A stretch of DNA of 64,000 nt from Patescibacteria group bacterium. GTDB lineage: Bacteria; Patescibacteriota; Patescibacteriia; UBA9934. Shown piece after piece: positions 16,732 to 49,206 of the stretch. The DNA is taken from positions 132,074-196,073 of the forward strand of contig JBAZWW010000002.1 of assembly GCA_041660165.1 (NCBI GenBank), in the 5' to 3' direction. The translations under genes were made by a program, and so were the position numbers. The notes beneath the pieces are model-generated. The model was not told the origin of the DNA and did not search any database. It saw only the letters and a list, made by a program, of their open reading frames with translations. Positions within the stretch are counted from its first letter, which is position 1; each line of letters begins with the position of its first letter.

Positions 16732-16743
16732 TAATCACAAAAA

Positions 16744-16770
16744 CACGACCCGTAAGGGTCGCATTTTTGT
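16744..16770 (+). terminator. Intrinsic terminator after the permease gene
   Basis: cgacccgtaagggtcg hairpin followed by CATTTTTGT. Confidence 0.55.
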
Positions 16771-16918
16771 GGCGGAGGGAGAGAGATCCTAACTACGTGG
16801 GTCGCCCCACATACATTTTGTCTAATGTTAGCCAAGCCGTTTTCAGTTTTATGGCCACGACTTGCCGAGACTTTGTTAATCATATATAATCTCCCATAGT
16901 CATAGTATAAGATTATCT

Positions 16919-20517: not shown

Positions 20518-20606
20518 TGGCGGAGGGGGCGAGATTCGAACTCGCGGAGGCTATTAACCTCGACGGTTTTCAAGACCGTTACCTTAAACCGCTCGGTCAC
20601 CCCTCC
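20518..20606 (-). tRNA. tRNA-Ser (anticodon UGA), with long variable arm and encoded CCA
   Basis: Minus-strand fold: acceptor GGAGGGG/CCCCTCC, anticodon loop cuUGAaa, long variable arm, T-loop TTCGAAT, 3'-GCCA. Confidence 0.8.
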
Positions 20607-20674
20607 CGTTTATCAGCTACGGCTGCGTGGGGCATTCTACGCGGTTTTGTTCAGTTTGTCTATGTGCACATGCT

Positions 20675-20703
20675 ATACAAAAATACGACCTTTACGGGTC
20701 GTA
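20675..20703 (-). terminator. Minus-strand intrinsic terminator downstream of tRNA-Ser(GCU)
   Basis: ACGACC-tttac-GGGTCGT stem followed by a U-tract on the minus strand. Confidence 0.45.
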
Positions 20704-20709
20704 TCTTTG

Positions 20710-20799
20710 TGGCGGAGAGGAGAGGATTCGAACCTCCGGTACCCTTTCAGGTACGCAGGTTTAGCAAACCTGTGCCTTAAGCCACTCGGCCACCTCTCC
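20710..20799 (-). tRNA. tRNA-Ser (anticodon GCU), with long variable arm and encoded CCA
   Basis: Minus-strand fold: acceptor GGAGAGG, anticodon loop ttGCTaa, long variable arm, T-loop TTCGAAT. Confidence 0.8.
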
Positions 20800-23672: not shown

Positions 23673-25769
23673 TTGGTATACTCCGCGGAACTTATGGCGT
23701 TCCACCTCAAGGACTCCATCGCCTCCGTGGCGACTATTGGCTCAGCCAAGGCAAAAGACTTTGCTAGGCTTGGCATCAATACTCTGCATGAAGCGTTGTT
23801 TGATTTCCCGTTCCGCTATGATGATTTGTCCCACGCGGTCATGATTGAGGACGTGAAGCCGGGGCAGAAGGTGACAGTCCAGGGAACTATCATGAGTATT
23901 GATAATCGCCGAAGCCAGAAGTCCTTCCGCATGATGGTGACGGAGGCAACTATCGAGGATGGGACTGGCGGGATCAAGGCCATTTGGTTTCACCAAGGAT
24001 TCTTGACGAAGATTTTGAAGCCCGGCCAAATTGTATCCCTCGCCGGCAAGGTAGATGACCGCTATGGTTTGTCACTCGTCAACCCTGCCTACGAAGTTGT
24101 CGGCAGTGGCAAGGTGGGGAAGGAGACGGGCAGAATTGTTCCTATTTATAAATTGACGGGCGCGCTTACTCAGAAGATTCGTCGGAAGGTGGCCGAGGCC
24201 TCTCTCGCCGCGGTGAACGAGGTGGAAGAATGGATGCCGGAGCGAATCATGAGGGAGGTTGAGTTAATCGGACTCGACCACGCCATTACTGAGCTTCACT
24301 TTCCTTCAGGCAATGAGGCAAAGGACAAGGCGCTCCGCCGTTTAAAGTTTGACGAGTTTTTCTTGCACCAGCTTTTGCACGCTAAGAGCCGTAGAGAACT
24401 CAAAACTCGCAAAGCGCCAAAGGTGCCGTTCCGTGAGGATTTGATGCGAGAATCGGTGGCGAATTTGCCATTTGCACTGACGGGGGCGCAGAAGAAAGCG
24501 GTCTGGGCGATCATTAAGGACATGAACCGTCCAGAGCCGATGAATAGACTGCTCGAAGGCGATGTAGGAAGCGGTAAGACCGTGGTGGCGGCACTTGTGG
24601 CTATGAACGCCTCACACGATGGCTGGCAGTCCGCTATGCTCGCCCCAACGGAAATTTTGGCCGAGCAACACGCGCAGACTTTGCAGAAGCTCTTTGGTGA
24701 TAAGCTGACCATTGGTCTCTATACTAGAACAAAACGCCGGGTAGGCGGTAAGGAAGTGACCAAGGCCCAGCTTCTCTCGGCCCTCAAGAATGGCGCAGTC
24801 AATCTCGTGGTCGGCACGCACGCGCTCTTAACTGGCGAGGTTTTATTTGATCGCCTCGGCTTGATTGTGGTTGATGAACAGCATAGGTTCGGCGTTCGCC
24901 AGCGTCAGGCGCTTAAAGATAAACAGGGGGATCTCGATGGTATTCCGCATTTGCTTTCAATGACCGCTACGCCGATCCCTCGATCATTGGCGCTGGTTCT
25001 ATATGGCGACCTCGACCGCTCAATTTTGAACGAGTATCCAGCCGGCCGAAAACCCATTCTTACCGAAGTGGTCGAGCTTGGTCGTGAGGAACCAATTTAC
25101 GAAATGATGCGCGAGCAGATGGATGCCGGCCGTCAGATTTTTGTGGTCTGTCCGTTGATTGAGGAATCAGACGCCCTCGGCGTAAACTCGGTGCATGAGG
25201 TCTACAAGGAATTCGTGACTGAGGGCTTCAAAGGCTATCGCGTTTCGATGTTGCACGGCCGGATGAAGACCAAGGAGAAAGATGACGTCATGCGTGCGTT
25301 TGCCAATGGCGAATCTGACATGCTGATTTCAACTACGGTGGTTGAGGTTGGTGTGGATGTGCCGAATGCTACCGTCATGTATGTTGAGGGCGCTGAGCGT
25401 TTTGGTCTGGCCCAGCTTCACCAGCTTCGCGGACGGGTTGGCCGTGGCGAGCACCAGAGCTACTGTTATTTGCATCCATCCGGCATCCTTGGCGATGTAG
25501 CCCACGAGCGCATGAAAGCCATTGAGAATAGCCAGGACGGATTTGATCTGGCTGAACGAGACCTCCAGCTCCGTGGCCCTGGCAGTATTTTTGGCACCGA
25601 GCAATCCGGCTTCGAGCAGTTCAAACTCGGCACCATGCATGACATTGACCTGATGAGCCACGCCAAGGATTTTGCTAAGGAGATGCTCGATGAAAGCCCG
25701 GATCTGGAGACGTTCCCGAAACTGAGAGAGCGATTGTATACGTATGTGAATGAGGTGCACTTTGAGTGA
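23673..25769 (+). CDS. recG: ATP-dependent DNA helicase RecG
   Basis: N-terminal wedge domain, DVGSGKT, DEQHRFGV, and a C-terminal TRG-motif region; 698 aa. Confidence 0.9.
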   Translation: MVYSAELMAFHLKDSIASVATIGSAKAKDFARLGINTLHEALFDFPFRYDDLSHAVMIEDVKPGQKVTVQGTIMSIDNRRSQKSFRMMVTEATIEDGTGGIKAIWFHQGFLTKILKPGQIVSLAGKVDDRYGLSLVNPAYEVVGSGKVGKETGRIVPIYKLTGALTQKIRRKVAEASLAAVNEVEEWMPERIMREVELIGLDHAITELHFPSGNEAKDKALRRLKFDEFFLHQLLHAKSRRELKTRKAPKVPFREDLMRESVANLPFALTGAQKKAVWAIIKDMNRPEPMNRLLEGDVGSGKTVVAALVAMNASHDGWQSAMLAPTEILAEQHAQTLQKLFGDKLTIGLYTRTKRRVGGKEVTKAQLLSALKNGAVNLVVGTHALLTGEVLFDRLGLIVVDEQHRFGVRQRQALKDKQGDLDGIPHLLSMTATPIPRSLALVLYGDLDRSILNEYPAGRKPILTEVVELGREEPIYEMMREQMDAGRQIFVVCPLIEESDALGVNSVHEVYKEFVTEGFKGYRVSMLHGRMKTKEKDDVMRAFANGESDMLISTTVVEVGVDVPNATVMYVEGAERFGLAQLHQLRGRVGRGEHQSYCYLHPSGILGDVAHERMKAIENSQDGFDLAERDLQLRGPGSIFGTEQSGFEQFKLGTMHDIDLMSHAKDFAKEMLDESPDLETFPKLRERLYTYVNEVHFE

Positions 25770-25770
25770 G

Positions 25771-25844
25771 GGGAAACAAAAATCCTGTTCAGAAATGTGG
25801 TCGGATTACCTCCCAACATTTCTTCACAGGAATTTTTGTTTCCC
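25771..25844. terminator. Long imperfect hairpin (GGGAAACAAAAATCCTGT ... ACAGGAATTTTTGTTTCCC) between the convergent recG and surface-protein genes
   Basis: Read from the sequence; contains a nested inner stem. Confidence 0.5.
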
Positions 25845-25851
25845 TCACTTG

Positions 25852-27552
25852 CTAGAAACTGAGCGTGTGGCCGGTGATGGGGAGGGCTTGGATGTACGTG
25901 CCGTTGATGTTGGTTGCGCCTGTGTCAGCGTCATCCCAGAGGATGGCGGGGAACACAATGGTATTTGCGGTCAGCTCGCTTGGAATAGAAGCCTGGATGA
26001 TGTCGTCTGTGCTGGCGCCGGACGTATCAAGGAAAAGTGCGAACGTGGTAGCGCTTGAGCTTTGCGGGAGAATGACGTCCGAAATGCCAAGCGCGGCGAA
26101 TCCTACTGGTGCTGTACTTCTGCCACAGGGAGTTCCATCCACCGCTAGGAATGCGGCATCACTGAACATTTCAGTCACACCATTTGAAAGATTTTTTAGC
26201 TGCCACCGTGCTCCAGAGCCAAGTTTGCCAGCTCCACATCTGTTCCAGCCTGTTCCTCCAGCATCTGAGGAGCTCAGTTGGATCATGACGCGGTTTAATT
26301 TCACGAAACCTCCCGGAGCCACGTTCACGTTAAAGCGGAGCACCTCAGCAAAGGCACCGGGTTGGGTTGGTGCTGTGGTGCCGGACGGGGAGGACGTAGA
26401 GAGCGTGAAGGCCGGGCGAGTCTTCCTGAGTACCATGGTGTTCGCATGAAGGTTGGATTCCAGCCACGCACCGGTTATGACGCGTCCGGAGGTGCGTGCC
26501 GTAGCTATAAAGCCCCCGGTTGTACCAAAGTCCAGATCAAATCCGAAGGTCATGTTTGAACGAGCAGGGCTGGTGGCCGTAATGGGAGCAGTATCAACAG
26601 CCACATCCACAACTGAACTGCTTGACGCGCCGGCCGGTACGTACATGTTAAGGCCAGTGAACTTGGCCGAGTGGTTTGAGAGCATGGCGCTCCTCACTAC
26701 CGTTGCGCCAAGCTGATCGAGATATTTGATTTTAACCGCCTGAATGGCCTGGTCATCACCCACATTTTTCAAGGTGAGGGTTTGGATGGTGAACGGCTCG
26801 TTCGTAGCGGTGAAAACGTAGGAGGCGGTGTTAACAAGTGGGGTGCCGGCTAGCGCGATATCTGCGCTCGGTGTGGTGCCGGAAAGTGAAGCGCTCAGCG
26901 TACCTGAATCACGGAGGGTGATGGAAACAGACGGTGGAACGTTTACGCCCGGGTCCGTTGCTCCGCCTATCTGCACTCGGCTTCCGCTCATTTGCCGTCC
27001 CGTGTAATCCTTTGCGGAAACGCTGGCATCATTCTTGAGCGAGAAAGCGTAAATGTCTGGATTGGTTCCGTCCACGGGAACGCTGGCAAAGGAACAGTTC
27101 ACGCTGTAATTGGCGCTCGTGTTGGCTTTGAGGATAATTGGCAGGCCTGTGAATGAGACGTTACCTAGGCGGTCCACAACTCGGCCCTGGCCAAGCGGAT
27201 GGCCTTGGCTGTCATTCAGAGCGCAGAGGCTGATGTGATCTGCCGGAGCAACGTTGTTTTCAATACTCGCAAATGATCCGTCAGTATCCGCGGTTACGGC
27301 AAACGTCAGGCGGTCAACGCGCACTGCCTGGTTTTGTGCCTGGAGGTTTACCAGGAAGACCGGTTCAAGCGTGGCGCCAGCCACGGTGGCGTGCGAGGTG
27401 AGCGCACTGCCAGTTTTGATAACCAGGATTGAGCCCGTGTTATTCGCCGCGATCATGAATCCGGCCGCTGCCGCTAGCCCGGCCGCCGCCATGATGGAAA
27501 GTCCCACTAACGTATTGGTTGTCGTTTGGACAACAGTGGATGATTTTGTCAT
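25852..27552 (-). CDS. Secreted Thr/Ser/Gly/Ala-rich surface protein, paralog 1 of 5
   Basis: Conserved N-terminal signal ...LAGLAAAAGF(M/L/V)IA, a beta-rich low-complexity body, and conserved C-terminal ...G(G/H)TL(V/S)(F/Y). Confidence 0.8.
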   Translation of the reverse strand: MTKSSTVVQTTTNTLVGLSIMAAAGLAAAAGFMIAANNTGSILVIKTGSALTSHATVAGATLEPVFLVNLQAQNQAVRVDRLTFAVTADTDGSFASIENNVAPADHISLCALNDSQGHPLGQGRVVDRLGNVSFTGLPIILKANTSANYSVNCSFASVPVDGTNPDIYAFSLKNDASVSAKDYTGRQMSGSRVQIGGATDPGVNVPPSVSITLRDSGTLSASLSGTTPSADIALAGTPLVNTASYVFTATNEPFTIQTLTLKNVGDDQAIQAVKIKYLDQLGATVVRSAMLSNHSAKFTGLNMYVPAGASSSSVVDVAVDTAPITATSPARSNMTFGFDLDFGTTGGFIATARTSGRVITGAWLESNLHANTMVLRKTRPAFTLSTSSPSGTTAPTQPGAFAEVLRFNVNVAPGGFVKLNRVMIQLSSSDAGGTGWNRCGAGKLGSGARWQLKNLSNGVTEMFSDAAFLAVDGTPCGRSTAPVGFAALGISDVILPQSSSATTFALFLDTSGASTDDIIQASIPSELTANTIVFPAILWDDADTGATNINGTYIQALPITGHTLSF

Positions 27553-27561
27553 ATTTTGCGC

Positions 27562-29283
27562 TTAGTATACCAGCGTTCCGCCAACGATGCTTGGGGAAGT
27601 AATGTATTGGCCGTCAATGTTCGTGACGCCGGTATCCGCATCTGTCCAGCGGATGGAGTCGTTATTTGTGGCGTTGGCTGTCAGCTCGTCTACAATTTCA
27701 AGACGTATTGTGTCATCTTGAGAACTGCTGGCGCCGGTGCTGTCAAACCAGACTGAGAGCGCCTTTGCCCCAGAAGATGAGGTAGGAATGGCTAAGAGAC
27801 CGCCAGTGGCTTGATTGAAGGTCACGATGGCATATGTAGCGATGCCTGGATTTGAAGCGTTACACGCTGTTCCGTCAGCGGACAGGATGCGCCAGTTGCT
27901 GGCATCGCCAAGAGCAGTGCCCGTACTGAAGTCACGAATTTGCCAGCGGTTTGCATCACCCCCAAAGTTACTGCAAGCGTTCCAGCCCCGGGCCTCATTG
28001 CTCGTGCTCATGAGGCGGAACATGATTTGCTGGAGCGCCACCGGACCGCCGGGAGCTGTCCAAATGTTAAACCTAAGGACCTCGCTCCGGCCTGGAACTG
28101 AGGCTCCGGATGGCGAGGCAGAGGAGAGCGAAAGATAGGGGCGAGTTTTTCTGAGGGTGAGCGTGTCTGCATGGATGCTTGCACCCATTGAGGACTCAGT
28201 GACAGTGTGTCCAGAGGTTTGAGCCACGGCCTTGAAGCCGTTAGCGGTGGTGAAATCAAGATCTAGTCCGAAGATCATGCCTGAGCGAGCCGAACCGGTT
28301 GCAGTAATTGGCGCGGTGTCTACAGCTACGTCGATAACAGCTTTGTTAGAGGCGCCGGCCGGTACATAGGCGTTAAGACCGGTGAATTTCGCGAGGTGAT
28401 TTGAGAGAGTGGCCGTTTTCACAACTTGCGCGCCAAGCTGGTCAAGGTATTTGATCTTGACTGTTTGCACGGCCGTATCATCGCCAGTGTTTTTGAGGGT
28501 GAGCGTCTGGATGATGAACGGTTCGTTCGTGGCGCTGAAGGCGTAGGAGACAGTGTTGACGAGCGGGGTGCCGGCCAGGGCGATGCCTGTGCCAGGGGTG
28601 GAGTAAGGACCGGCACTGAGCGTCCCTCCGTCCCGGACCGTCACCGCAATGTTAGGCGGGAAGTTGACGCCGGGATCATTTGGACCGCCAATATTGATGC
28701 GGTTTCCGGGAAGAATCGCTCCTCGATCAGTGTGTGCATCAACGCTAGCATCGGTTTTGATGGAGAAGGCGTAAATGTCTGCATTAGCGCCATCCGTTGG
28801 GACATTGGCAAAGGTGCACCAGAGCCTGAACGTTCGGGTGACATTGGCTGGAATTGTTTGGGCAAGATTGGTAAAGGAAATATTTCCCTGATTATCAGGA
28901 ATCTGGCCTTGGCCAACTAATGCGCCTTGGGCGTTGTTCAAGACGCAGGAGCTGAGATGGTCACCTGCGTTAATGTTATTTTCAATGCTCGAAAAAGTTC
29001 CGTCAGTATCGGCCGTGGCCGTGAACATCAGACGGTTAACGGTGACCGGTTTGTTCTGCGCCAGCAGACTGAAGCTAAGAACCTGTTCAAATGAACCAGC
29101 CACGGTGGAGTGCGAAGCTGGATTGGGCAACGCTTTAATGACCAGGACAGGTAGTGTATTCCTGGAAGCGATCAGAAACCCCGCCGCCGCCGCTAAACCA
29201 GCGAGAGCGACTATCCCGATGCCGATTTTAGTCGAGGTTTTTGTTTGAGTTTGTGTCTGTGTAGCCGTTGATAGGTTGTCCAT
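27562..29283 (-). CDS. Secreted surface protein, paralog 2 of 5
   Basis: N-terminus MDNLSTATQTQTQTKTSTKIGIGIVALAGLAAAAGFLIA; about 75% identity to paralog 1 over the central region. Confidence 0.8.
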   Translation of the reverse strand: MDNLSTATQTQTQTKTSTKIGIGIVALAGLAAAAGFLIASRNTLPVLVIKALPNPASHSTVAGSFEQVLSFSLLAQNKPVTVNRLMFTATADTDGTFSSIENNINAGDHLSSCVLNNAQGALVGQGQIPDNQGNISFTNLAQTIPANVTRTFRLWCTFANVPTDGANADIYAFSIKTDASVDAHTDRGAILPGNRINIGGPNDPGVNFPPNIAVTVRDGGTLSAGPYSTPGTGIALAGTPLVNTVSYAFSATNEPFIIQTLTLKNTGDDTAVQTVKIKYLDQLGAQVVKTATLSNHLAKFTGLNAYVPAGASNKAVIDVAVDTAPITATGSARSGMIFGLDLDFTTANGFKAVAQTSGHTVTESSMGASIHADTLTLRKTRPYLSLSSASPSGASVPGRSEVLRFNIWTAPGGPVALQQIMFRLMSTSNEARGWNACSNFGGDANRWQIRDFSTGTALGDASNWRILSADGTACNASNPGIATYAIVTFNQATGGLLAIPTSSSGAKALSVWFDSTGASSSQDDTIRLEIVDELTANATNNDSIRWTDADTGVTNIDGQYITSPSIVGGTLVY

Positions 29284-29291
29284 AGATTTTT

Positions 29292-31343
29292 TTAGAAGAC
29301 CAGCGTTCCGCCGTTCACGGTGAGGTAATGAACCAGGTACGCGCCCCAGTATTCCTGGTAGCTTGTGCCCACGCCAGGTGTACCGTCATCCTGCCAGAGA
29401 ACAGATCCTGGCAGACGAACCACGTTTTGGCCGGTGATAGGACGCAGAATGTTCGTACCCAAGTAGCCCCTGGCAAAACTGACATCATTCCCGTTGACCG
29501 CAGTGACGAGCGCCCTTTCCTCGGTGGCCTCGCACGTGGTGTTCGTGCCGGAGAAACAGGCAGTGTCTCCTACGGAGAAGCCGGCTCCTTTGGCCAGGGT
29601 GATGATGGAATCGTTTCTTGTTAGGCTGGCGTCGTTAATGGTTGATCCCGGAAGGAAGGTGCTGACGATGGGGTCAGCAACGATGTCAAAACGTACGGAG
29701 TCGTCGCTTGATGAGCTGGCGCCTGTAGAGTCAAAGTACAGCGCGTATGCGTACGATTGGCCTCTTGGAATGACCTGCGGAACGGGGAAGGCGATACCAG
29801 CAAAGCCAAGTGTTGCACCCGTGCTATCACAATTTGCTCCGGTGGTTTTGTAGAGCGTCCAGTTGTTATCAGCTGTATCAAGAGTTTGCGAAGTGCTCTC
29901 GAGCGTCAGGTTATAGAGGTCAAAATCGCTGGCGGTGGTGACGCCTGAGGTGGCGTCTGTATCGCAGTCATTCCAATGTGTTGTTGGGTAAGTGTTATCC
30001 GTTGAACTTATTTTGAACATCAGCTTTGAGAGCACGGCATCTTCATTTACCCCCGCGGTTACGCTGAAACGAATGACTTCGCCTCGGCCGACAACTGCAC
30101 TGCCCGAAGGAGAAGAGTTACTGAACGAAACGGTCGGTTTCGTTTCGCGAACCACGAAAGTAGAAATTTTGTCCGTGCTGAATGCGTCATCGCCAATAGG
30201 ATTCTGTGCCCTATCATCAAGCACCGTGCCGGATGTCATGCCGACAACTTTGAAATTGTCCTTATTGGCTTTATCTACGAATAATCCCATACGGACCTTC
30301 TCGTTTGAGGTCGCTAGTCCGCCTGAGTTGTGGTCGCTTGTTGGTACGTCGATAGATACGGTGACATCCTTGGGATAGCCCTCAGCTACGTACATGTCGA
30401 GTCCGCTAAACTTGGCTTCATTGCCGGACATGGCCGTGGTAGCTGAGCCGGTTGTGCCGTCAGCTTTTGGATATTGGATTTTGACAAGTGAAATATTGTT
30501 CGTGTAGGCATTTGAATCAGCTGTCCCCGTATCATCTTCTGCCTGTTCTTCAGAGAAGGTCAGCGTTTGAACGTTAAATGGTTCACGCGTTGCGGTGAAG
30601 CGGTATTTTGCCACTTCATTGTTAGCGCTTGGAGCCAGGAGAATATCAGCAATCGGCCAGTTCGGAGCGGATTCAATCGCCAGGTCCCCATGTTCAATAA
30701 CCGTCACATTCACTCGCCGGCCATTCAGATTGATGCCCGGATCACGCGGTCCGCCAAGGTGGATTCTTTGTTCAGGAATGGCCGTGCCGTTATTGACTTG
30801 TTCGGCGGTCACAGATCCGTTCCCTATGAGCTGGAGCGCAAACATGTCCGGGTTGCCATTGAGCGGGGCGGTGGCTGGGATGTCGCACTTCACAATGTAA
30901 GAATTGACGGAGTTTGTGCTTACCGCCAGGGCGACGTTGCCGAACGTCAGACGCTGTTGCGCATCAACTGGTGCCGGGCCGGCCATGAGCGTGGAACCGT
31001 TATAGAGGCTACAGCTGGTGACGAGCTCCGATAGGTGAAGATCGTTTTGGATAGTGGTAAATGATTTATCATCATCAGCTAGGCCGGTGAGGACAAGTTT
31101 TGTCACCATGATGTCCTTATTTTTTGCCGAGAGTAAAAAGTTCAGCACATTGGCTCCCCGTGCTCCGCCAACTGCCACTTGGCTTGGAACCGCAGATCCT
31201 AACTGGACACTCAGCACCGGCTCGCTGGTGGTTGCGATCAGAAATCCGGCCGCCGCGGCTAATCCGGCCAGAGCGATGACCCCGATGCCAACTTTGGTCG
31301 AGGTCTGTGTTTGCGTCTGCGTGGCTGTTGATATTTTTTTCAT
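29292..31343 (-). CDS. Secreted surface protein, paralog 3 of 5 (longest, 683 aa)
   Basis: N-terminus MKKISTATQTQTQTSTKVGIGVIALAGLAAAAGFLIA; C-terminus NGGTLVF. Confidence 0.8.
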   Translation of the reverse strand: MKKISTATQTQTQTSTKVGIGVIALAGLAAAAGFLIATTSEPVLSVQLGSAVPSQVAVGGARGANVLNFLLSAKNKDIMVTKLVLTGLADDDKSFTTIQNDLHLSELVTSCSLYNGSTLMAGPAPVDAQQRLTFGNVALAVSTNSVNSYIVKCDIPATAPLNGNPDMFALQLIGNGSVTAEQVNNGTAIPEQRIHLGGPRDPGINLNGRRVNVTVIEHGDLAIESAPNWPIADILLAPSANNEVAKYRFTATREPFNVQTLTFSEEQAEDDTGTADSNAYTNNISLVKIQYPKADGTTGSATTAMSGNEAKFSGLDMYVAEGYPKDVTVSIDVPTSDHNSGGLATSNEKVRMGLFVDKANKDNFKVVGMTSGTVLDDRAQNPIGDDAFSTDKISTFVVRETKPTVSFSNSSPSGSAVVGRGEVIRFSVTAGVNEDAVLSKLMFKISSTDNTYPTTHWNDCDTDATSGVTTASDFDLYNLTLESTSQTLDTADNNWTLYKTTGANCDSTGATLGFAGIAFPVPQVIPRGQSYAYALYFDSTGASSSSDDSVRFDIVADPIVSTFLPGSTINDASLTRNDSIITLAKGAGFSVGDTACFSGTNTTCEATEERALVTAVNGNDVSFARGYLGTNILRPITGQNVVRLPGSVLWQDDGTPGVGTSYQEYWGAYLVHYLTVNGGTLVF

Positions 31344-31350
31344 ATTTGTA

Positions 31351-33087
31351 TTAGAAGACCAGCGTCCCGCCGGTAAGGGGAAGCGTTTTTACGTTTAGAC
31401 TGTTGGCATTGCACTGGAGACCGGCGTCACACCAGATGAGGTCAAGCGAGCTGTAGTTGGCCGGGGAGTAGGGGATACTCGCGCTTACGGAGTCTCCTGG
31501 TTTTGCTCCTGCGGTGTCCAGCATGAGCGAATAGGTGTGGGTAGTCCCGGCGCTGACAAGGAACTCGCTATGGAGCGAAGAATCCAGGAAATTTACGTTG
31601 ATGGTGTCTACCACGGCGTTATTATCGTATCCGCAATGGTGTATTCCATCAGGCGTCATACCAAAGAGCTCCGTGGTGAAGGTGTGCCCGGTTGTGAGAT
31701 CAGTGACCGTGGCTGGCCGTCCGTTGGTGGTGAACGGTCCGCACGAATTCCATCCGCTGTTCGTGGTGTCTGTTGAGTGGATGTTGAACCTGAGATTAGT
31801 AACCGTAACATCTCCCGTTGGCGCCGCCGAAACATTAAAGCGCAGAATTTCGCTATAGCCATGGGCATCTGGTCGAGCCGGTCCAGAGGGCGAGGCGGAG
31901 CTCAGTGTAATCGTCGGGCGAGTTTTGCGCAGGATGAAGGTTCCGCTTGGTTGAAAATTACTCATGCTCGATTCCGTGACGGTAAACCCGCTCGTGGCGG
32001 CCACCGCTTGGAAGCTTCCGGGGGCAGTAAAATCCATCGTTATGCCCAATTGTCTGCCGGAATCATATGGCGTAATGACTGGCGGGGTATCAACGCCCAC
32101 GTCAATCCTGGCCGCGTTGGCTGCTCCGGTGGGCACGTACATGTCTAGGTTTGAAAACTGGAGAAAGTGGTTTGAGAACGTGCCTGTTTTTGTGACCGCG
32201 ATTCCTGATTGATTGTTATAGGTGAGGGATACAAGCTTGATAGCTGCGTCATCCCCCCAATTCTTCAGCGTGAGTTTTTTGACGGTGAAGGTCTCATTTA
32301 CGGCGGTGAGTGAAAAATCGGCCACTCGGTTATTGTTCGTGTTGCCAATGATAATATCCCCGACTGGGGAGAAGCGGTAATCGTTATCTGCGCTCAGTTT
32401 TCCGTGATCGCGGACGGTGACGGTGGTCGGACCCACAAAATTATGAAGAATATTCACGCCGGTGTCCTGTTCATTCCCAACATAAATCCGACTGCCGGGT
32501 AGGGAATTTCCTTGAGGACCAAGCGCAGTGACATAGCTTGGATCGCCAATGAGTGCAAGGGCCATGATGTATTTACCGGTGGCAGAAGAATTTGCCAGAT
32601 CACAGGAGACGGTGAATGGAGTGACGGAATTTGCCGGGAGTGAAAATCTATCACTGAAGGTGAGTATATTTCCATTTGAAATGACGGGCGCCGGGCCAGC
32701 CCAAACGGCTCCTGTACTATTATTCTTGAGGACGCATGAGGTGACAAGATCGCCCCCCGAGAGGTCATTCTCTATAGTGGCAAAATTGCCATCACTGTCA
32801 AAGAAGGCCGCGAAGGATAGTTTTTGTACGGTGATACTGGCATTTTTTGCTTGAAGCTTTATGCCAAGGATGGGCTCATTTTGTGCACCCATGATTGCGC
32901 TGTGGGCCGTGGGTTCAGGAGCGCTAGTCATGATGAGAAGCGGGTGTAGTATGGAAATCGGCCGTTTTTCTGACGCTATGACAAACCCCGCGGCCGCCGC
33001 TAGTCCGGCCAGGCCAAGGAGGGCAAGGCCGACTTTGGTTGAAGTCTGCGTTTGGGTTTTGACGGTCGTGGCTGACGAAGTTTTCAT
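31351..33087 (-). CDS. Secreted surface protein, paralog 4 of 5
   Basis: Start placed at the internal Met giving MKTSSATTVKTQTQTSTKVGLALLGLAGLAAAAGFVIA; the ORF track extends to 33180. Confidence 0.75.
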   Translation of the reverse strand: MKTSSATTVKTQTQTSTKVGLALLGLAGLAAAAGFVIASEKRPISILHPLLIMTSAPEPTAHSAIMGAQNEPILGIKLQAKNASITVQKLSFAAFFDSDGNFATIENDLSGGDLVTSCVLKNNSTGAVWAGPAPVISNGNILTFSDRFSLPANSVTPFTVSCDLANSSATGKYIMALALIGDPSYVTALGPQGNSLPGSRIYVGNEQDTGVNILHNFVGPTTVTVRDHGKLSADNDYRFSPVGDIIIGNTNNNRVADFSLTAVNETFTVKKLTLKNWGDDAAIKLVSLTYNNQSGIAVTKTGTFSNHFLQFSNLDMYVPTGAANAARIDVGVDTPPVITPYDSGRQLGITMDFTAPGSFQAVAATSGFTVTESSMSNFQPSGTFILRKTRPTITLSSASPSGPARPDAHGYSEILRFNVSAAPTGDVTVTNLRFNIHSTDTTNSGWNSCGPFTTNGRPATVTDLTTGHTFTTELFGMTPDGIHHCGYDNNAVVDTINVNFLDSSLHSEFLVSAGTTHTYSLMLDTAGAKPGDSVSASIPYSPANYSSLDLIWCDAGLQCNANSLNVKTLPLTGGTLVF

Positions 33088-33092
33088 AGATT

Positions 33093-34823
33093 TTAGAAGA
33101 CCAGCGTTCCGCCAGTGACAGGAACCGCGTACACGCCGGCGCCGTCCAGGAGGTCTTGGCCGTGAAGTGTTTCGCGCCACTGCAGGTTATGCAGAAGAGG
33201 GGAGAGATTGGCGGGGTCGGTCGGGATGCTGACGGAAATCTTGTCATCGAGTGACGAGCTGGCGCCCGTGGTGTCCACCGTCAGTGAGAAAGTGTGTGTT
33301 GTGCCTGCGGGAATGTTGTTATTAAGCAAGTTAACCAGGGCATAGACAACTGGGTCTTGTTGCCTATCATCTGGCCCGCAGCGTGTTCCGGAGTTGTCCG
33401 CTATGTACCAAGATAAAGCATTAGTTTCGACGTTTCCTGACGTTATGTCCTTAAGCTCCCACTTGGAAACATCGCCAAGTTTGTTGCCGTACGTTCCGCC
33501 CCCGCAACTTGCCCAATAGTTATTTGCATTATCGGTCGCGTTAATTTTGAACGTAAATTGCGACATGCTCACATCTCCGCCTGGATCAGCCGCTACGTTG
33601 AATCGTAATACCTCCTCGCGTCCAGGAATTGAAGCGCCAGATGGTGAGCTGGTGCTGAGAGAGACGGTGGGTTTGGTTTTGTAAAGCTTGAAGGGATTCC
33701 CGTAAAGGCTGGAGCCCATGCCTGCTTCAGTTTGCGTGTGACCAGATGTGTTGGCGACTGCGCTGAAACTTCCGGGTGTGGCAAAATCAAGCGAGGCTTC
33801 AATGGTCATGCCTGAGGTGGCACCGGTCGTGGCGTTGATGGCCGGGGCGCTGACGGAGACGTCGAGTAGCTGGGCATTAGCGGCGCCGGCTTGAATTGGC
33901 ATGGCCATGCCGGTGAATCTAGCGACGCCATTTACAAACGCCATGGAGTTTGTGCCAAGAGTTCCATCAGGGTATCTGTAGGAAAGGTAGGCGTACGCCA
34001 CGGCTTGCGCTTGGCCTGCTTGTTTGATGGTAAGTGTCCGAACGGTGTAATCCTCATTTGTGCTTGAAAGAGTGAATGAAGCAACTTTGGTTGGCCTGGT
34101 TTGATCACCGGCTACCACAATGCCAATCCACGGCGAGGTGGCGCTCATTCCTGCGCTCAGCACGCCGTAATCTTTTACGGTAACCGTGGTGGCGAGTGCG
34201 GTGTTCACGCCCGGGTCTGTTTGCCCGCCAAGGTAAATTCGACTGCCGGGAATGGAATTTCCTTGAGGACCAACCGCGGTAACATCAGCATCATTTTTGA
34301 GCGAAAAGGCGTAGATGTCTGGCGAGCTGCCGTCAGGATAGGCATCGGAAAAAGTACAACGAAGACGCATGGTTTTTCCGCTATTTGCTGGAATGTTGAG
34401 GCCAAGATTGGTAAAAGTGACGCGTCCGGAACTATCGATAATTTGTCCTTGGCCAATGAGATGGCTTGACGCGTCGTATATTCCGCACAGCGAGATGTGG
34501 TCAGCGGGGGATACGTTGTTCTCCACGCTTGCAAACGTTCCGTCAGTATCGCTAGTTGCGGTGAACACAAGGCGGTTAACCTTCATGGCGATATTTTGTG
34601 CCTGGAGCGTGAAGCCAAGAACGGGATCGAGTTCTGTTCCGCTCGTGATGACATGGGACGCAGGCTGAGGCGTCATTCTGATGATTAGCGTTGGCTGAGC
34701 GGCGGAGGCGATCACAAATCCTGCAGCCGCTGCCAGGCCGGCCAGGCCAAGGAGAGCCACGCCGACTTTGGTTGAAGTTTGCGTTTGGGTTGTTGTTTGA
34801 ACCGCTGTTGATGTTGGTTTCAT
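33093..34823 (-). CDS. Secreted surface protein, paralog 5 of 5
   Basis: N-terminus MKPTSTAVQTTTQTQTSTKVGVALLGLAGLAAAAGFVIA; C-terminus TGGTLVF. Confidence 0.8.
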   Translation of the reverse strand: MKPTSTAVQTTTQTQTSTKVGVALLGLAGLAAAAGFVIASAAQPTLIIRMTPQPASHVITSGTELDPVLGFTLQAQNIAMKVNRLVFTATSDTDGTFASVENNVSPADHISLCGIYDASSHLIGQGQIIDSSGRVTFTNLGLNIPANSGKTMRLRCTFSDAYPDGSSPDIYAFSLKNDADVTAVGPQGNSIPGSRIYLGGQTDPGVNTALATTVTVKDYGVLSAGMSATSPWIGIVVAGDQTRPTKVASFTLSSTNEDYTVRTLTIKQAGQAQAVAYAYLSYRYPDGTLGTNSMAFVNGVARFTGMAMPIQAGAANAQLLDVSVSAPAINATTGATSGMTIEASLDFATPGSFSAVANTSGHTQTEAGMGSSLYGNPFKLYKTKPTVSLSTSSPSGASIPGREEVLRFNVAADPGGDVSMSQFTFKINATDNANNYWASCGGGTYGNKLGDVSKWELKDITSGNVETNALSWYIADNSGTRCGPDDRQQDPVVYALVNLLNNNIPAGTTHTFSLTVDTTGASSSLDDKISVSIPTDPANLSPLLHNLQWRETLHGQDLLDGAGVYAVPVTGGTLVF

Positions 34824-35870: not shown

Positions 35871-37232
35871 CTACTTTCCTAGCTCCTTTACATGTTTTGT
35901 ATTCTTGGGCGTCAACGATGCGGGCATGCCGAGTCTTTCGGCCTCCTTTAGGCGCCTCTCTAGGAAGGGGACTGAGCGGACTTCACCGCCCAAACCAAGC
36001 TCGCCAAGGATAATCATATCGGCAGGGAAGGTCTTTTCGTTGATCGCCGAAATGATGGCTGCGGCCACCGCTAGGTCAGCGGCGTGCTCGTCAATTTTTA
36101 TTCCGCCGACTACGTTCACATACACATCTTGATCATACACTTTGATGCCGGCGCGTTTAGAGATGATCGCGAGCAACATTTGGAGTCTCGACGCATCATA
36201 ACCGCTGGTTCGGCGAACAGGATTCGGGAAGAAGCTCTTGTCCACGAGCGCTTGGATTTCGACCAGGAATGGTCTCGAACCCGCCATGATACACGTCACG
36301 ACCGAGCCCGGCCCCGGCACCCGTTCTTTCAGAAACCTCGCCGAGGGATTTTCAACGGCGATCAGGCCCTTTTCAGTCATTTCGAAAACTCCGATCTCCT
36401 CGGTGCTCCCGAACCGGTGTTTTTCTGCTCGTAGAATTCTATAGGCCGAGTCTGGATCGCCTTCGAGTGTGAGCACGGTATCGACTAAGTGTTCGAGCGT
36501 TTTCGGTCCGGCGATAGATCCTTCCTTGGTTACTTGGCCGATAATAAGCACAGGAATCCCCGTCGATTTCGCAAATCCTATTAGTTCGGTGGTGGCCGCT
36601 CGCACGGCCGTTGGTGTCCCCGGGAACGAATCAGCCTCGGCCACCATCATCGTCTGGATTGAATCTACAATAACGATACTCGGTTTCTCTGCCTTGGCCG
36701 CTGCCACAATCGCGCCCACGTCAACCGCGTTCGAGAATAGAATGGTCGAAGGATTTATGCCGAGTCTCTCAAAGCGCATCCGTACCTGTCCCTCAGATTC
36801 CTCGCCGGAGGCGTAGTAGGACGTCACCATCCTGAGCGAGAGCGAAGGATCCGACTTTCTCTTGTGAGGGTCGGACCCCTCGGTTGCAACCTCGGGGCGG
36901 GAGGGGATCGAAGTGAAGGATGTTGCGATCTGTGCTACGAGCGTCGATTTTCCAATTCCAGGCTCGCCAGCCAGCAAGGTCACTGAGCCTGGCACAATGC
37001 CTCCGCCAAGCACTCGATCAAGTTCGGATAATCCTGTAGAAACAGGGGAGACCATGGCCCCTGTTGCGTCGCCTAGTTTGAGGGTTTGTGCGGGTTTGCT
37101 CGACGATGTTTTTTTGGATAACGAAGACAGCGCCGTGGCGCCGTCCTCCGAAAGCGTGCCCCATTTCCCGCATTCCAGGCAACGGCCGGACCATCTCAGG
37201 ACTTGCGTGTCGCAGTGTGAACAGCTGAACAT
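35871..37232 (-). CDS. radA: DNA repair protein RadA/Sms
   Basis: N-terminal C4 zinc finger CSHC...CLEC, Walker A GEPGIGKST, and a Lon-like C-terminal domain. It carries an extra ~26 aa between the Walker A helix and the GEES motif. Confidence 0.9.
   Translation of the reverse strand: MFSCSHCDTQVLRWSGRCLECGKWGTLSEDGATALSSLSKKTSSSKPAQTLKLGDATGAMVSPVSTGLSELDRVLGGGIVPGSVTLLAGEPGIGKSTLVAQIATSFTSIPSRPEVATEGSDPHKRKSDPSLSLRMVTSYYASGEESEGQVRMRFERLGINPSTILFSNAVDVGAIVAAAKAEKPSIVIVDSIQTMMVAEADSFPGTPTAVRAATTELIGFAKSTGIPVLIIGQVTKEGSIAGPKTLEHLVDTVLTLEGDPDSAYRILRAEKHRFGSTEEIGVFEMTEKGLIAVENPSARFLKERVPGPGSVVTCIMAGSRPFLVEIQALVDKSFFPNPVRRTSGYDASRLQMLLAIISKRAGIKVYDQDVYVNVVGGIKIDEHAADLAVAAAIISAINEKTFPADMIILGELGLGGEVRSVPFLERRLKEAERLGMPASLTPKNTKHVKELGK
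36828..36905. repeat. Copy C of the palindromic repeat family, inserted in frame inside radA
   Basis: ATCCTGAGCGAGAGCGAAGGATCCGAC...GTCGGACCCCTCGG matches the intergenic copies at 43880 and 49091. Its right end has diverged. Confidence 0.6.
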
Positions 37233-43879: not shown

Positions 43880-43965
43880 GGTTCCCATCCCATCCTGAGC
43901 AATAGCGAAGGATCCGCCCCTCACCGGTGAAAGTCGGACCCTTCGCATGGCTCAGGGTGGGAACC
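43880..43965. repeat. Copy A of the palindromic repeat family (intergenic, between the htpX stop and the clpC start)
   Basis: GGTTCCCATCCCATCCTGAGCAATAGCGAAGGATCCGCCCCTCACCGGTGAAAGTCGGACCCTTCGCATGGCTCAGGGTGGGAACC. The two halves are mutually reverse-complementary (terminal inverted repeats). Confidence 0.7.
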
Positions 43966-49070: not shown

Positions 49071-49090
49071 AGTTAGAGTTTGTTTATCTC

Positions 49091-49193
49091 TATCCTGAGC
49101 GAGAGCGAAGGATCCGACTCCTCGGGCGTAGCCCTACGGGCGAGCCTCACCGGTGAAAGTCGGACTCTTCGCATGGCTCAGAGTGGGACCATT
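49091..49193. repeat. Copy B of the palindromic repeat family (intergenic between pheS and pheT), carrying an extra nested hairpin insert
   Basis: ATCCTGAGCGAGAGCGAAGGATCCGAC ... CTCACCGGTGAAAGTCGGACTCTTCGCATGGCTCAGAGTGGGACCATT. Confidence 0.7.
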
Positions 49194-49206
49194 CACCAAT
49201 CTTTCT

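Follow-up and report, generated by a model that had tools for sequence, protein, structure and literature searches.

A palindromic repeat carried in frame within the radA gene of a Patescibacteria bacterium

Palindromic repeats lying in frame within bacterial genes have been known since 2000, and the Ssn nucleases with their Ssn-related motifs (SRM) since 2025. Here we describe a palindromic repeat of about 76 nt that lies in frame within radA, the gene for RadA/Sms, in a 64,000-nt stretch of a Patescibacteria group genome (contig JBAZWW010000002.1; the whole stretch is called the window below). Among the described systems, the repeat is closest to an inverted pair of SRM.

REP/BIME sequences and REPINs are extragenic palindromes, often arranged as inverted pairs, which are non-autonomous and are thought to be spread by a single-copy enzyme acting on hairpins (RAYT); REPs are specific to a species or genus. 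The comparison of REP/RAYT with Ssn is drawn in the discussion of Chenal et al. 2025 (PMC11893778). According to the same paper, the Neisseria repeat NTS (CGTCATTCCCGCGMAVGCGGGAATCYRG) and the SRM flank ssnA homologs, which encode a GIY-YIG domain only (cd10448), and Ssn cuts single-stranded DNA (ssDNA) beside its motif, on one strand only, in a reaction for which the GTCAT head matters. NTS are rare within genes (2 %), and their arrangement as NTS-ssnA-NTS is likened to an insertion sequence; in Neisseria, Ssn/NTS pairs modulate natural transformation, and Rickettsia is among the SRM-rich genera (PMC11893778). The main text of that paper makes no mention of Patescibacteria and describes no in-frame read-through. 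Rickettsia palindromic elements (RPEs; Ogata et al. 2000, 2002), as far as the summaries in PMC10969869 and PMC1458961 go, measure roughly 150 bp (PMC10969869), and in R. bellii 53 of 526 lie within genes (PMC1458961). Intragenic transposable elements of the miniature inverted-repeat type (MITEs), such as ERIC, BOX, QMITE1 and the Anabaena MITEs, are small and non-autonomous, have terminal inverted repeats and occasionally form in-frame fusions with open reading frames (ORFs; PMC10969869).

A complete repeat copy in the radA frame

The radA gene of the window contains 27 codons that enclose a complete 76-nt copy of a repeat (36827-36902). Two further copies are found in the window, both of them intergenic and between same-strand genes. 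An earlier note, made from the letters of this DNA alone, had placed a palindromic repeat in frame at this point; the repeat, the open frame and the translation it quoted are all borne out, whereas its span of 36825-36914 took in three flanking codons, as the insert itself covers 36825-36905. The features are as follows; handles beginning with L and P denote compared loci and proteins.

35871..37232, minus strand: radA (RadA/Sms), an uninterrupted ORF of 453 aa (ORF translation, PDB 5LKM, TIGR00416, Pfam)
36942..36968, minus strand: Walker A motif, GEPGIGKST, residues 89-97 (translation; invariant in the ortholog alignment)
36825..36905, minus strand: in-frame insert, codons 110-136, PSRPEVATEGSDPHKRKSDPSLSLRMV, a predicted disordered loop (gap in the 5LKM alignment; absent in L123 and L124; model confidence)
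36795..36806, minus strand: GEES motif, residues 143-146, where the core strand after the insert ends (translation, ortholog alignment)
36827..36855, plus strand: left arm of the repeat, CCATCCTGAGCGAGAGCGAAGGATCCGAC, which is antisense to radA and encodes SDPSLSLRM (28/28 against the 49090 copy; nhmmer)
36856..36869, plus strand: loop, TTTCTCTTGTGAGG, the sole family member lacking a TGA in the frame of radA (all copies analyzed by frame)
36870..36902, plus strand: right arm, GTCGGACCCCTCGGTTGCAACCTCGGGGCGGGA, with the inner stem intact and the outer part diverged, 3 nt longer than in the plain element (alignments)
43888..43962, plus strand: intergenic copy between an M48 peptidase-like gene and a Clp ATPase gene, a perfect long hairpin (alignment, folding)
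49090..49188, plus strand: intergenic copy directly upstream of an 820-aa ORF, with a nested module (alignment, fold z = -3.9, nhmmer E = 2.7e-17)
49121..49144, minus strand: the nested 24-nt module, CTCGCCCGTAGGGCTACGCCCGAG, in the loop of the 49090 copy (one occurrence in the window)

The relation of the insert to the intergenic copies was evident at the nucleotide level. The 27-mer quoted in the earlier note, ATCCTGAGCGAGAGCGAAGGATCCGAC, occurs at 36829, 43892 (3 mismatches) and 49092 (0 mismatches), with none expected in 100 shuffles. In local alignments, the insert matched the 49090 copy at 28/28 positions and the 43888 copy at 45/56, scores reached by none of 1000 shuffles in either case, and the three copies align end to end as arm, loop and inverted arm. 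A nhmmer profile built from seven other members of the family, with the radA copy left out, found that copy at 36827-36885 (E = 4.6e-16) and no additional copy within the 64-kb window. The similarity to the intergenic copies on which the earlier proposal depended is highly significant. Each arm has the form yCCATCCTGAGC-GAGA-GCGAAGGATCCGAC, and two inverted arms surround a short loop.

The host gene encodes an unmistakable RadA. Its product passes the equivalog cutoff of TIGR00416 (456.9 bits against 403, in a match of two stretches), is aligned by phmmer with Streptococcus pneumoniae RadA (PDB 5LKM) at E = 3e-101, and contains a zinc ribbon, an AAA_25/KaiC-type ATPase domain with Walker A and B, and a ChlI/Lon-like C-terminal domain according to Pfam. 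The motif of KNRFG type appears as KHRFG in the window protein, and the ortholog alignment shows every RadA motif conserved. NCBI names the window protein only "ATPase domain-containing protein" and the insert-free orthologs RadA; the splitting of the TIGR00416 match by the insert may have caused the generic name. In the window, only 48 nt separate radA from the gene that comes next, and relatives keep the local gene order of a gene resembling type IV secretion system pilins, radA and an AAA gene.

In the alignment with 5LKM, query residues 2-109 correspond to residues 8-115 of the chain and query residues 137-445 to residues 117-426, so that residues 110-136 (27 aa) stand opposite a single residue. 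The spacing from GIGKSTL to GEES is 44 residues in the window RadA versus 18 in S. pneumoniae RadA; the earlier note, with 44 against about 18 in canonical RadA, had counted correctly. In an AlphaFold2 model computed with 23 orthologs as input (mean predicted local distance difference test score, pLDDT, 73.7), a helix at 95-105 follows the P-loop, residues 106-137 are coil, and the next strand (YYASG) occupies 138-142; pLDDT falls below 50 for residues 110-134. The model, which the earlier note had asked for, thus places the insert in a low-confidence and probably disordered loop, where the helix that follows Walker A gives way to the next ATPase-core strand. An intein was considered and rejected: the insert has 27 aa where at least 130 aa would be expected, only RadA-type Pfam domains match, and its DNA is homologous to intergenic repeats.

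Close relatives lack the insert. Orthologs with 87-88 % identity (L123, L124; P0004-P0007) read AGFQSAYYASGEES and are empty at the site, the junction in L123 and L124 being ...IAGFQSAYYASGEES with nothing in between, so that the insert is lineage-specific. Relatives share 87-90 % amino-acid identity with the window RadA, but four-fold degenerate sites are only 35-47 % identical, which is saturation. By this combination of high protein identity and saturated silent sites, radA is under strong purifying selection and is a working gene that carries an insert, not a pseudogene.

The reading frame distinguishes the radA copy from all others. In the radA frame, every other family copy has a TGA in its loop (...CAC CGG TGA AAG...), whereas the radA copy reads CAC AAG AGA AAG, with no stop. 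A typical copy of the repeat has one or two open frames out of six. Since copies are this prone to stops, persistence within a gene requires a frame-keeping length, a stop-free variant and a tolerant site, and such a filter is what a passenger under selection looks like. The hairpin has also changed. The 43888 copy folds strongly (z = -6.3 as RNA; -24 kcal/mol and z = -5.75 as DNA), while the radA copy keeps the inner stem and has lost the outer pairing (z from -0.7 to -2.5, versus -3.9 to -6.3 for the intergenic copies). This decay of the outer stem fits a passenger that does not need its hairpin. The right arm of the radA copy is nearest in length to that of L213, which also has 33 nt; about 25 of the 33 are identical by eye.

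Several copies of the repeat end a few bases before a start codon (L225:6352-6440; window 49188-49200), and their G-rich end (GGTGGAG or GGTGGGA) then stands at the position expected for a ribosome-binding site. A search of the whole window against Rfam found three tRNAs above the gathering score and nothing else, leaving the repeat unmatched; the best hit to the 43888 copy in a permissive Rfam search had E = 2.1.

A cross-phylum family and its GIY-YIG genes

When we scanned one genome per species with CCTGAGCNNNAGCGAAGGATCC as the query, we obtained at least 120 arm-motif loci from about 15 phyla, including those of the isolates Enhydrobacter aerosaccus and Bifidobacterium vespertilionis. Given this cross-phylum distribution, the intergenic copies are not derived from radA. 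The general form of the family is GTCATCCTGAGCG..AGCGAAGGATCC, a variable loop, and GGATyCTTCGC..GCTCAGrATGAC. The window subfamily, whose further members from metagenomes are L131, L149, L152, L154, L213, L225 and L233, has CCCAT or TCCAT as its head where the family has GTCAT, and a longer inner stem (CCGAC/GTCGG). A metagenome scan with a gapped inner-stem pattern proved too loose, most of the matches inspected being chance occurrences in GC-rich DNA and seven loci clear subfamily members. Literature searches by arm sequence and by translated peptides returned primers and unrelated text only, and a search for palindromic elements in Patescibacteria or the Candidate Phyla Radiation found nothing relevant.

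To find read-through cases, 134 copies of the cross-phylum hairpin were scanned for ORFs running on for 60 codons or more to either side. Eighteen copies lie inside such ORFs, and four of these were checked. Three are clear in-frame insertions in conserved proteins: tgt of a Magasanikbacterium (L114; PF01702, E = 1e-147), where the alignment with a PDB chain leaves query residues 186-213 (28 aa) facing two residues; mnmE of an alphaproteobacterium (L047); and an Eco57I-type methylase of Ktedonobacter (L115). The fourth, secA (L051), contains a single arm only. Among the others, many come from translated GC-rich DNA, or their true start lies downstream of the hairpin.

Arm units also form tandem arrays in direct orientation (L016:183-934, L007:7553-7800 and L040:1540-1640), the periods being about 30, 43 and 87 nt. 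In Fibrobacter (L025:3612-5354; L072; L103), single arms are translated as VILSDSEGS within Ser-rich linkers of large secreted or repeat proteins, and a single ORF of L025 has the peptide at the beginning of each repeated domain, two times in all.

Genes that might mobilize the repeat were sought by all-against-all clustering of ORFs within 1.5 kb of the 134 copies. No recurrent transposase-like, IS200-like or RAYT family emerged, and the largest cluster (6 of 120 loci) consisted of translations of GC-rich DNA. A first scan for GIY-YIG genes was weak (3 of 120 loci), and the association became convincing once arm orientation and protein-selected loci were taken into account. At the arm-selected loci, all four GIY-YIG ORFs touch an arm, and PF01541 confirmed their identity. 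In L064 (Patescibacteria) and L016 (Gemmatimonadota), a GIY-YIG gene of about 95 aa is bracketed by inverted arms; in L035 and L113, an arm abuts the gene. The L016 gene has three or four arm units on each side, and in L064 the arm motif GAAGGATC stands 7 nt before the ATG.

Ten control loci were then picked by tblastn with the GIY-YIG protein alone. Hairpins of SRM type (GTCATyC...GrATGAC-type ends) lie within 600 nt of the gene in nine of them, seven recognized by the published SRM pattern and two (L247 and L248) by a separate detector. By the listed coordinates, the gene lies between hairpins in seven control loci; L253 has hairpins only to one side, and those on L251's second side were picked out by eye. 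The inner stem of these hairpins differs by lineage. On plasmid AZO_p3 of Azospirillum lipoferum (L252; 254918-256390), SRM hairpins stand to either side of an Ssn-like gene inserted between sufB and sufC in an operon that is otherwise conserved. Within the window subfamily, L152 has a weak Ssn homolog only. In L123, where the radA insert is absent, a 96-aa GIY-YIG-only Ssn-like gene directly follows radA (L123:11272-11801); a repeat of another kind, AGTCyTTGCGAGA...TCGAAGCAATC, flanks it and has its inverted copy on the downstream side.

An arm, a gene and an inverted arm are the published Ssn/SRM architecture, and the dyad of the window is therefore best read as the ends of a cassette without its gene. 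In this genome, the arms of such a cassette would be of the CCATCCTGAGC type. We lean slightly towards the view that the dyad represents GIY-YIG cassette ends, spread or kept uniform through an Ssn-type nuclease. Such a dyad would have spread by means of a nuclease supplied in trans or by recombination between copies.

The window contains other repeats as well. Four to five tandem units of about 1.7-2.1 kb with 65-80 % identity (repeat families D1-D11) occupy 26500-34800 and probably correspond to tandem paralogous genes in L121 (about 570 aa, no Pfam match, after the AAA gene). An unrelated, AT-rich inverted repeat at 25765-25849 has 34-nt arms, 82 % complementary, and a 17-nt loop. A short hairpin, ACAAAAAyACGACC...GGTCGyAT.TTTGT, occurs at 16736-16771 and 20677-20711, the two mutually inverted and about 3.9 kb apart; the second adjoins tRNA genes at 20521-20799.

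Origin of the insert and competing explanations

We consider it highly probable that an SRM-like dyad entered a loop of RadA and is tolerated and translated there as a passenger. In such a scenario, a non-autonomous repeat of about 76 nt would have landed at the turn that leads from the helix following Walker A into the next core strand, and would have persisted since the added length was in frame, the copy was free of stops and the loop tolerated extra residues, all three being needed together. The repeat would now be read through as a disordered loop of 27 residues, most likely without function in RadA.

Several observations weigh against this account. That the 27 codons are translated we infer, as we do the mode of movement and the lack of function. 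No target-site duplication is recognizable at the three window copies, and the nearest empty sites, whose linker is shortened too, are no direct guide to radA before the insertion. Copies in genomes with saturated synonymous sites share the left arm unchanged, the arm AAAGTCGGATCCTTCGCTCTCGCTCAGGATGG of the radA insert matching an intergenic copy in L123 at 32/32 positions when compared by eye. An arm that stays identical at such divergence must be kept by something stronger than drift, and it does not fit a simple old insert decaying neutrally; either the spread was recent, or gene conversion or a sequence constraint such as protein recognition has preserved the arm. The published SRM pattern has 0 matches in the window (0.44 expected from shuffles), and none on any arm of the three copies or of the cross-phylum family. 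A single arm folds weakly as ssDNA (-2.7 to -4.0 kcal/mol, z -0.2 to -1.4, versus -8.9 kcal/mol and z = -3.9 for NTS), from which it follows that the stable structure here is the dyad. Finally, no Ssn homolog that could serve the window subfamily as a mobilizing enzyme is encoded in the window. With regard to the pattern, the same expression recognizes NTS and matches seven of the ten control loci, and it also misses the arms around the GIY-YIG genes of L016, L064, L247 and L248.

The alternative that survives best concerns the history of the site and is a refinement of the passenger explanation, not a contradiction of it. The present copy may have replaced, or nested into, an older palindromic insert through hairpin attraction or gene conversion; we regard this as possible but rather unlikely. 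The RadA insert site is hypervariable across the clade, with unrelated palindromes in other lineages. We counted palindromes in the window insert and those of eight further orthologs, leaving out L245, which was mis-delimited after an earlier GKST had been picked. Four of the nine are strong palindromes (L125, z = -8.8; L126, z = -6.3; L127, z = -4.0; L243, z = -3.5), compared with 1.8 % of 114 control windows from the same genes below z = -3. The window element has no sequence relation to any of the four, and L126 and L243 have common motifs by eye, though the two RadA proteins are far apart. L121, the ortholog closest to the window RadA (90 %), has an insert of 30 residues with a different sequence at the same codon position. 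Thus, this loop has collected hairpin DNA repeatedly, either as the most permissive site or through one palindrome attracting the next.

Nesting itself is visible among the copies. The 24-nt module in the 49090 copy recurs in the right arm of L154 and in the L121 radA insert (27/28, 0/1000 shuffles), and as CTCGGGCGTAGCCCTACGGGCGAG it takes different nesting positions in different hairpin copies and in the L121 insert (L121:6300-6400); it behaves like a still smaller insertion unit. The repeat loop occurs in both orientations among copies, and the M48/Clp intergenic copy stands at the same position in L123 (3391-3464) with its loop flipped, despite saturated synonymous sites. These flips at one genomic position and the left-arm identity despite saturation would suit replacement within an existing palindrome. 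On the other side, the window insert contains no statistically supported remnant of an older one, and tolerated insertions could simply accumulate at one permissive site. A shared origin of the window and L121 inserts was considered and found no statistical support: the nhmmer profile does not recognize the L121 insert, and its alignment to the window insert is not significant beyond the 24-nt module.

That the insert has been put to use, as a new RadA surface or as a nuclease target at which single-stranded radA DNA is cut, for example during DNA uptake, we judge improbable. The effect of Ssn and NTS on transformation in Neisseria gives the idea some appeal, as do the perfectly conserved left arm and the frame kept open. 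RadA acts on recombination intermediates, which speaks for the idea as well. However, close orthologs work without the insert, the segment is predicted to be disordered, the L121 insert is quite different, and the long hairpin has been lost; in addition, the window has no Ssn gene, and the head of the repeat is CCCAT or TCCAT and not GTCAT.

We attach almost no weight to a repeat-induced chimera in the assembly of radA. Short-read metagenome assemblies can collapse or misjoin at repeats, but both flanks continue radA in frame, the loop and right arm are unique to the radA copy, and inserts also stand at this position in orthologs from other samples. The protein is the same in the NCBI gene call (196,749-nt contig) and in that from JGI/ENA data (256,942-nt contig); the insert of the latter (P0003) is identical to that of the window, which argues against an artefact, though the two assemblies may share reads. 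Hardly credible, too, is an ancestral, fast-evolving RadA linker that resembles the intergenic repeats by coincidence: junction length and sequence do vary in many orthologs and the L121 insert is of similar length, but the nucleotide homology, with the end-to-end match and the alignment and profile scores given above, refutes it, and the empty close orthologs speak against it too.

Comparison with known systems

In-frame colonization of conserved genes by palindromes is not peculiar to Rickettsia and occurs in Patescibacteria too, and the same hairpin family behaves likewise in Alphaproteobacteria and Chloroflexota. What is new here is an arm variant outside the published motif, its spread in Patescibacteria, Bacillota, Chloroflexota, Acidobacteriota and other phyla, the reading-through of such dyads within the frames of radA, tgt, mnmE and a methylase, and the recurrent use of one RadA loop. 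The arm variant ties the in-frame behavior to the Ssn/SRM system, and since the published pattern misses it, SRM-type repeats are probably more widespread than reported. Movement of the element becomes testable with purified enzyme and an oligonucleotide. Inserts of this kind split profile matches and create spurious small ORFs, so the annotation of reduced genomes would gain from recognizing them, and the unrelated palindromes recurring at one RadA loop offer a natural experiment on insertion-tolerant protein sites.

A broader proposal, which we put forward as speculative and doubtful, is that inverted SRM-like pairs are a general, cross-phylum source of coding palindromes, entering tolerant loops (radA, tgt, mnmE, methylases) and mobilized or kept uniform by small GIY-YIG ssDNA nucleases, with RPEs perhaps as the Rickettsia branch. 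Were it true, a puzzle of 25 years' standing would gain a candidate enzyme, and Patescibacteria would have in their RadA loop a natural recorder of repeated hairpin invasions. Within the literature library that could be searched, we found no paper linking RPEs to GIY-YIG or Ssn.

Of the systems introduced at the outset, MITEs share with the window element the terminal inverted repeats (the whole element being a dyad) and the in-frame fusion with a host ORF; in contrast to MITEs, neither a target-site duplication, among the three window copies, nor a transposase family was found. REPs and REPINs resemble it as extragenic, non-autonomous palindromes in inverted pairs, the intergenic location included. 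They differ in that no IS200-like or RAYT gene recurs beside the present hairpins, whose associated gene is a GIY-YIG nuclease, and in that the arm of the window family is nearly invariant across phyla.

The earlier note had likened the insert to RPEs, and as far as behavior is concerned the likeness stands: a short, multi-copy palindromic repeat, with some copies in frame in unrelated conserved genes at fold-compatible sites, in a reduced host genome. Such a placement is seen in radA and, for the same hairpin, in tgt, mnmE and the methylase. The sequence family is a different one. The element is shorter (about 75 nt), has one in-frame copy in 64 kb and shares its arms with a family found in about 15 phyla. 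Its host lies outside Rickettsia, a 100 % identical protein (P0001) coming from a metagenome-assembled genome of the Patescibacteria group. The radA insert and nine other element-encoded peptides gave no match in NCBIfam at E ≤ 10, in a search without a positive control in which the presence of RPE peptide models (TIGR01045 and relatives) was presumed.

The closest system is that of the SRM repeats. The CCTGAGCG..GCGAAGG arms miss the published pattern HGTCWYN(0-2)YYVSBRHN(0-5)WNVSBRGN(0-2)RNCYNB, and we class the element as an SRM-like variant that falls outside the published definition and is not a proven SRM. A published SRM unit is a 20-50 nt hairpin whose conserved 5' head is oriented and whose palindrome is followed by a C; a single arm here has the same outline, with a head, a 5-bp stem (ATCCT/AGGAT) and a tail (ATCC), but folds weakly, as given above. 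Like the SRM, the family consists of oriented units, each with a head of GTCAT type followed by a short stem and a GGATC(C) tail, in hundreds of dispersed copies with a wide phylogenetic spread, and inverted units of its cross-phylum arm bracket a GIY-YIG-only gene of about 95 aa, as in L064 and L016.

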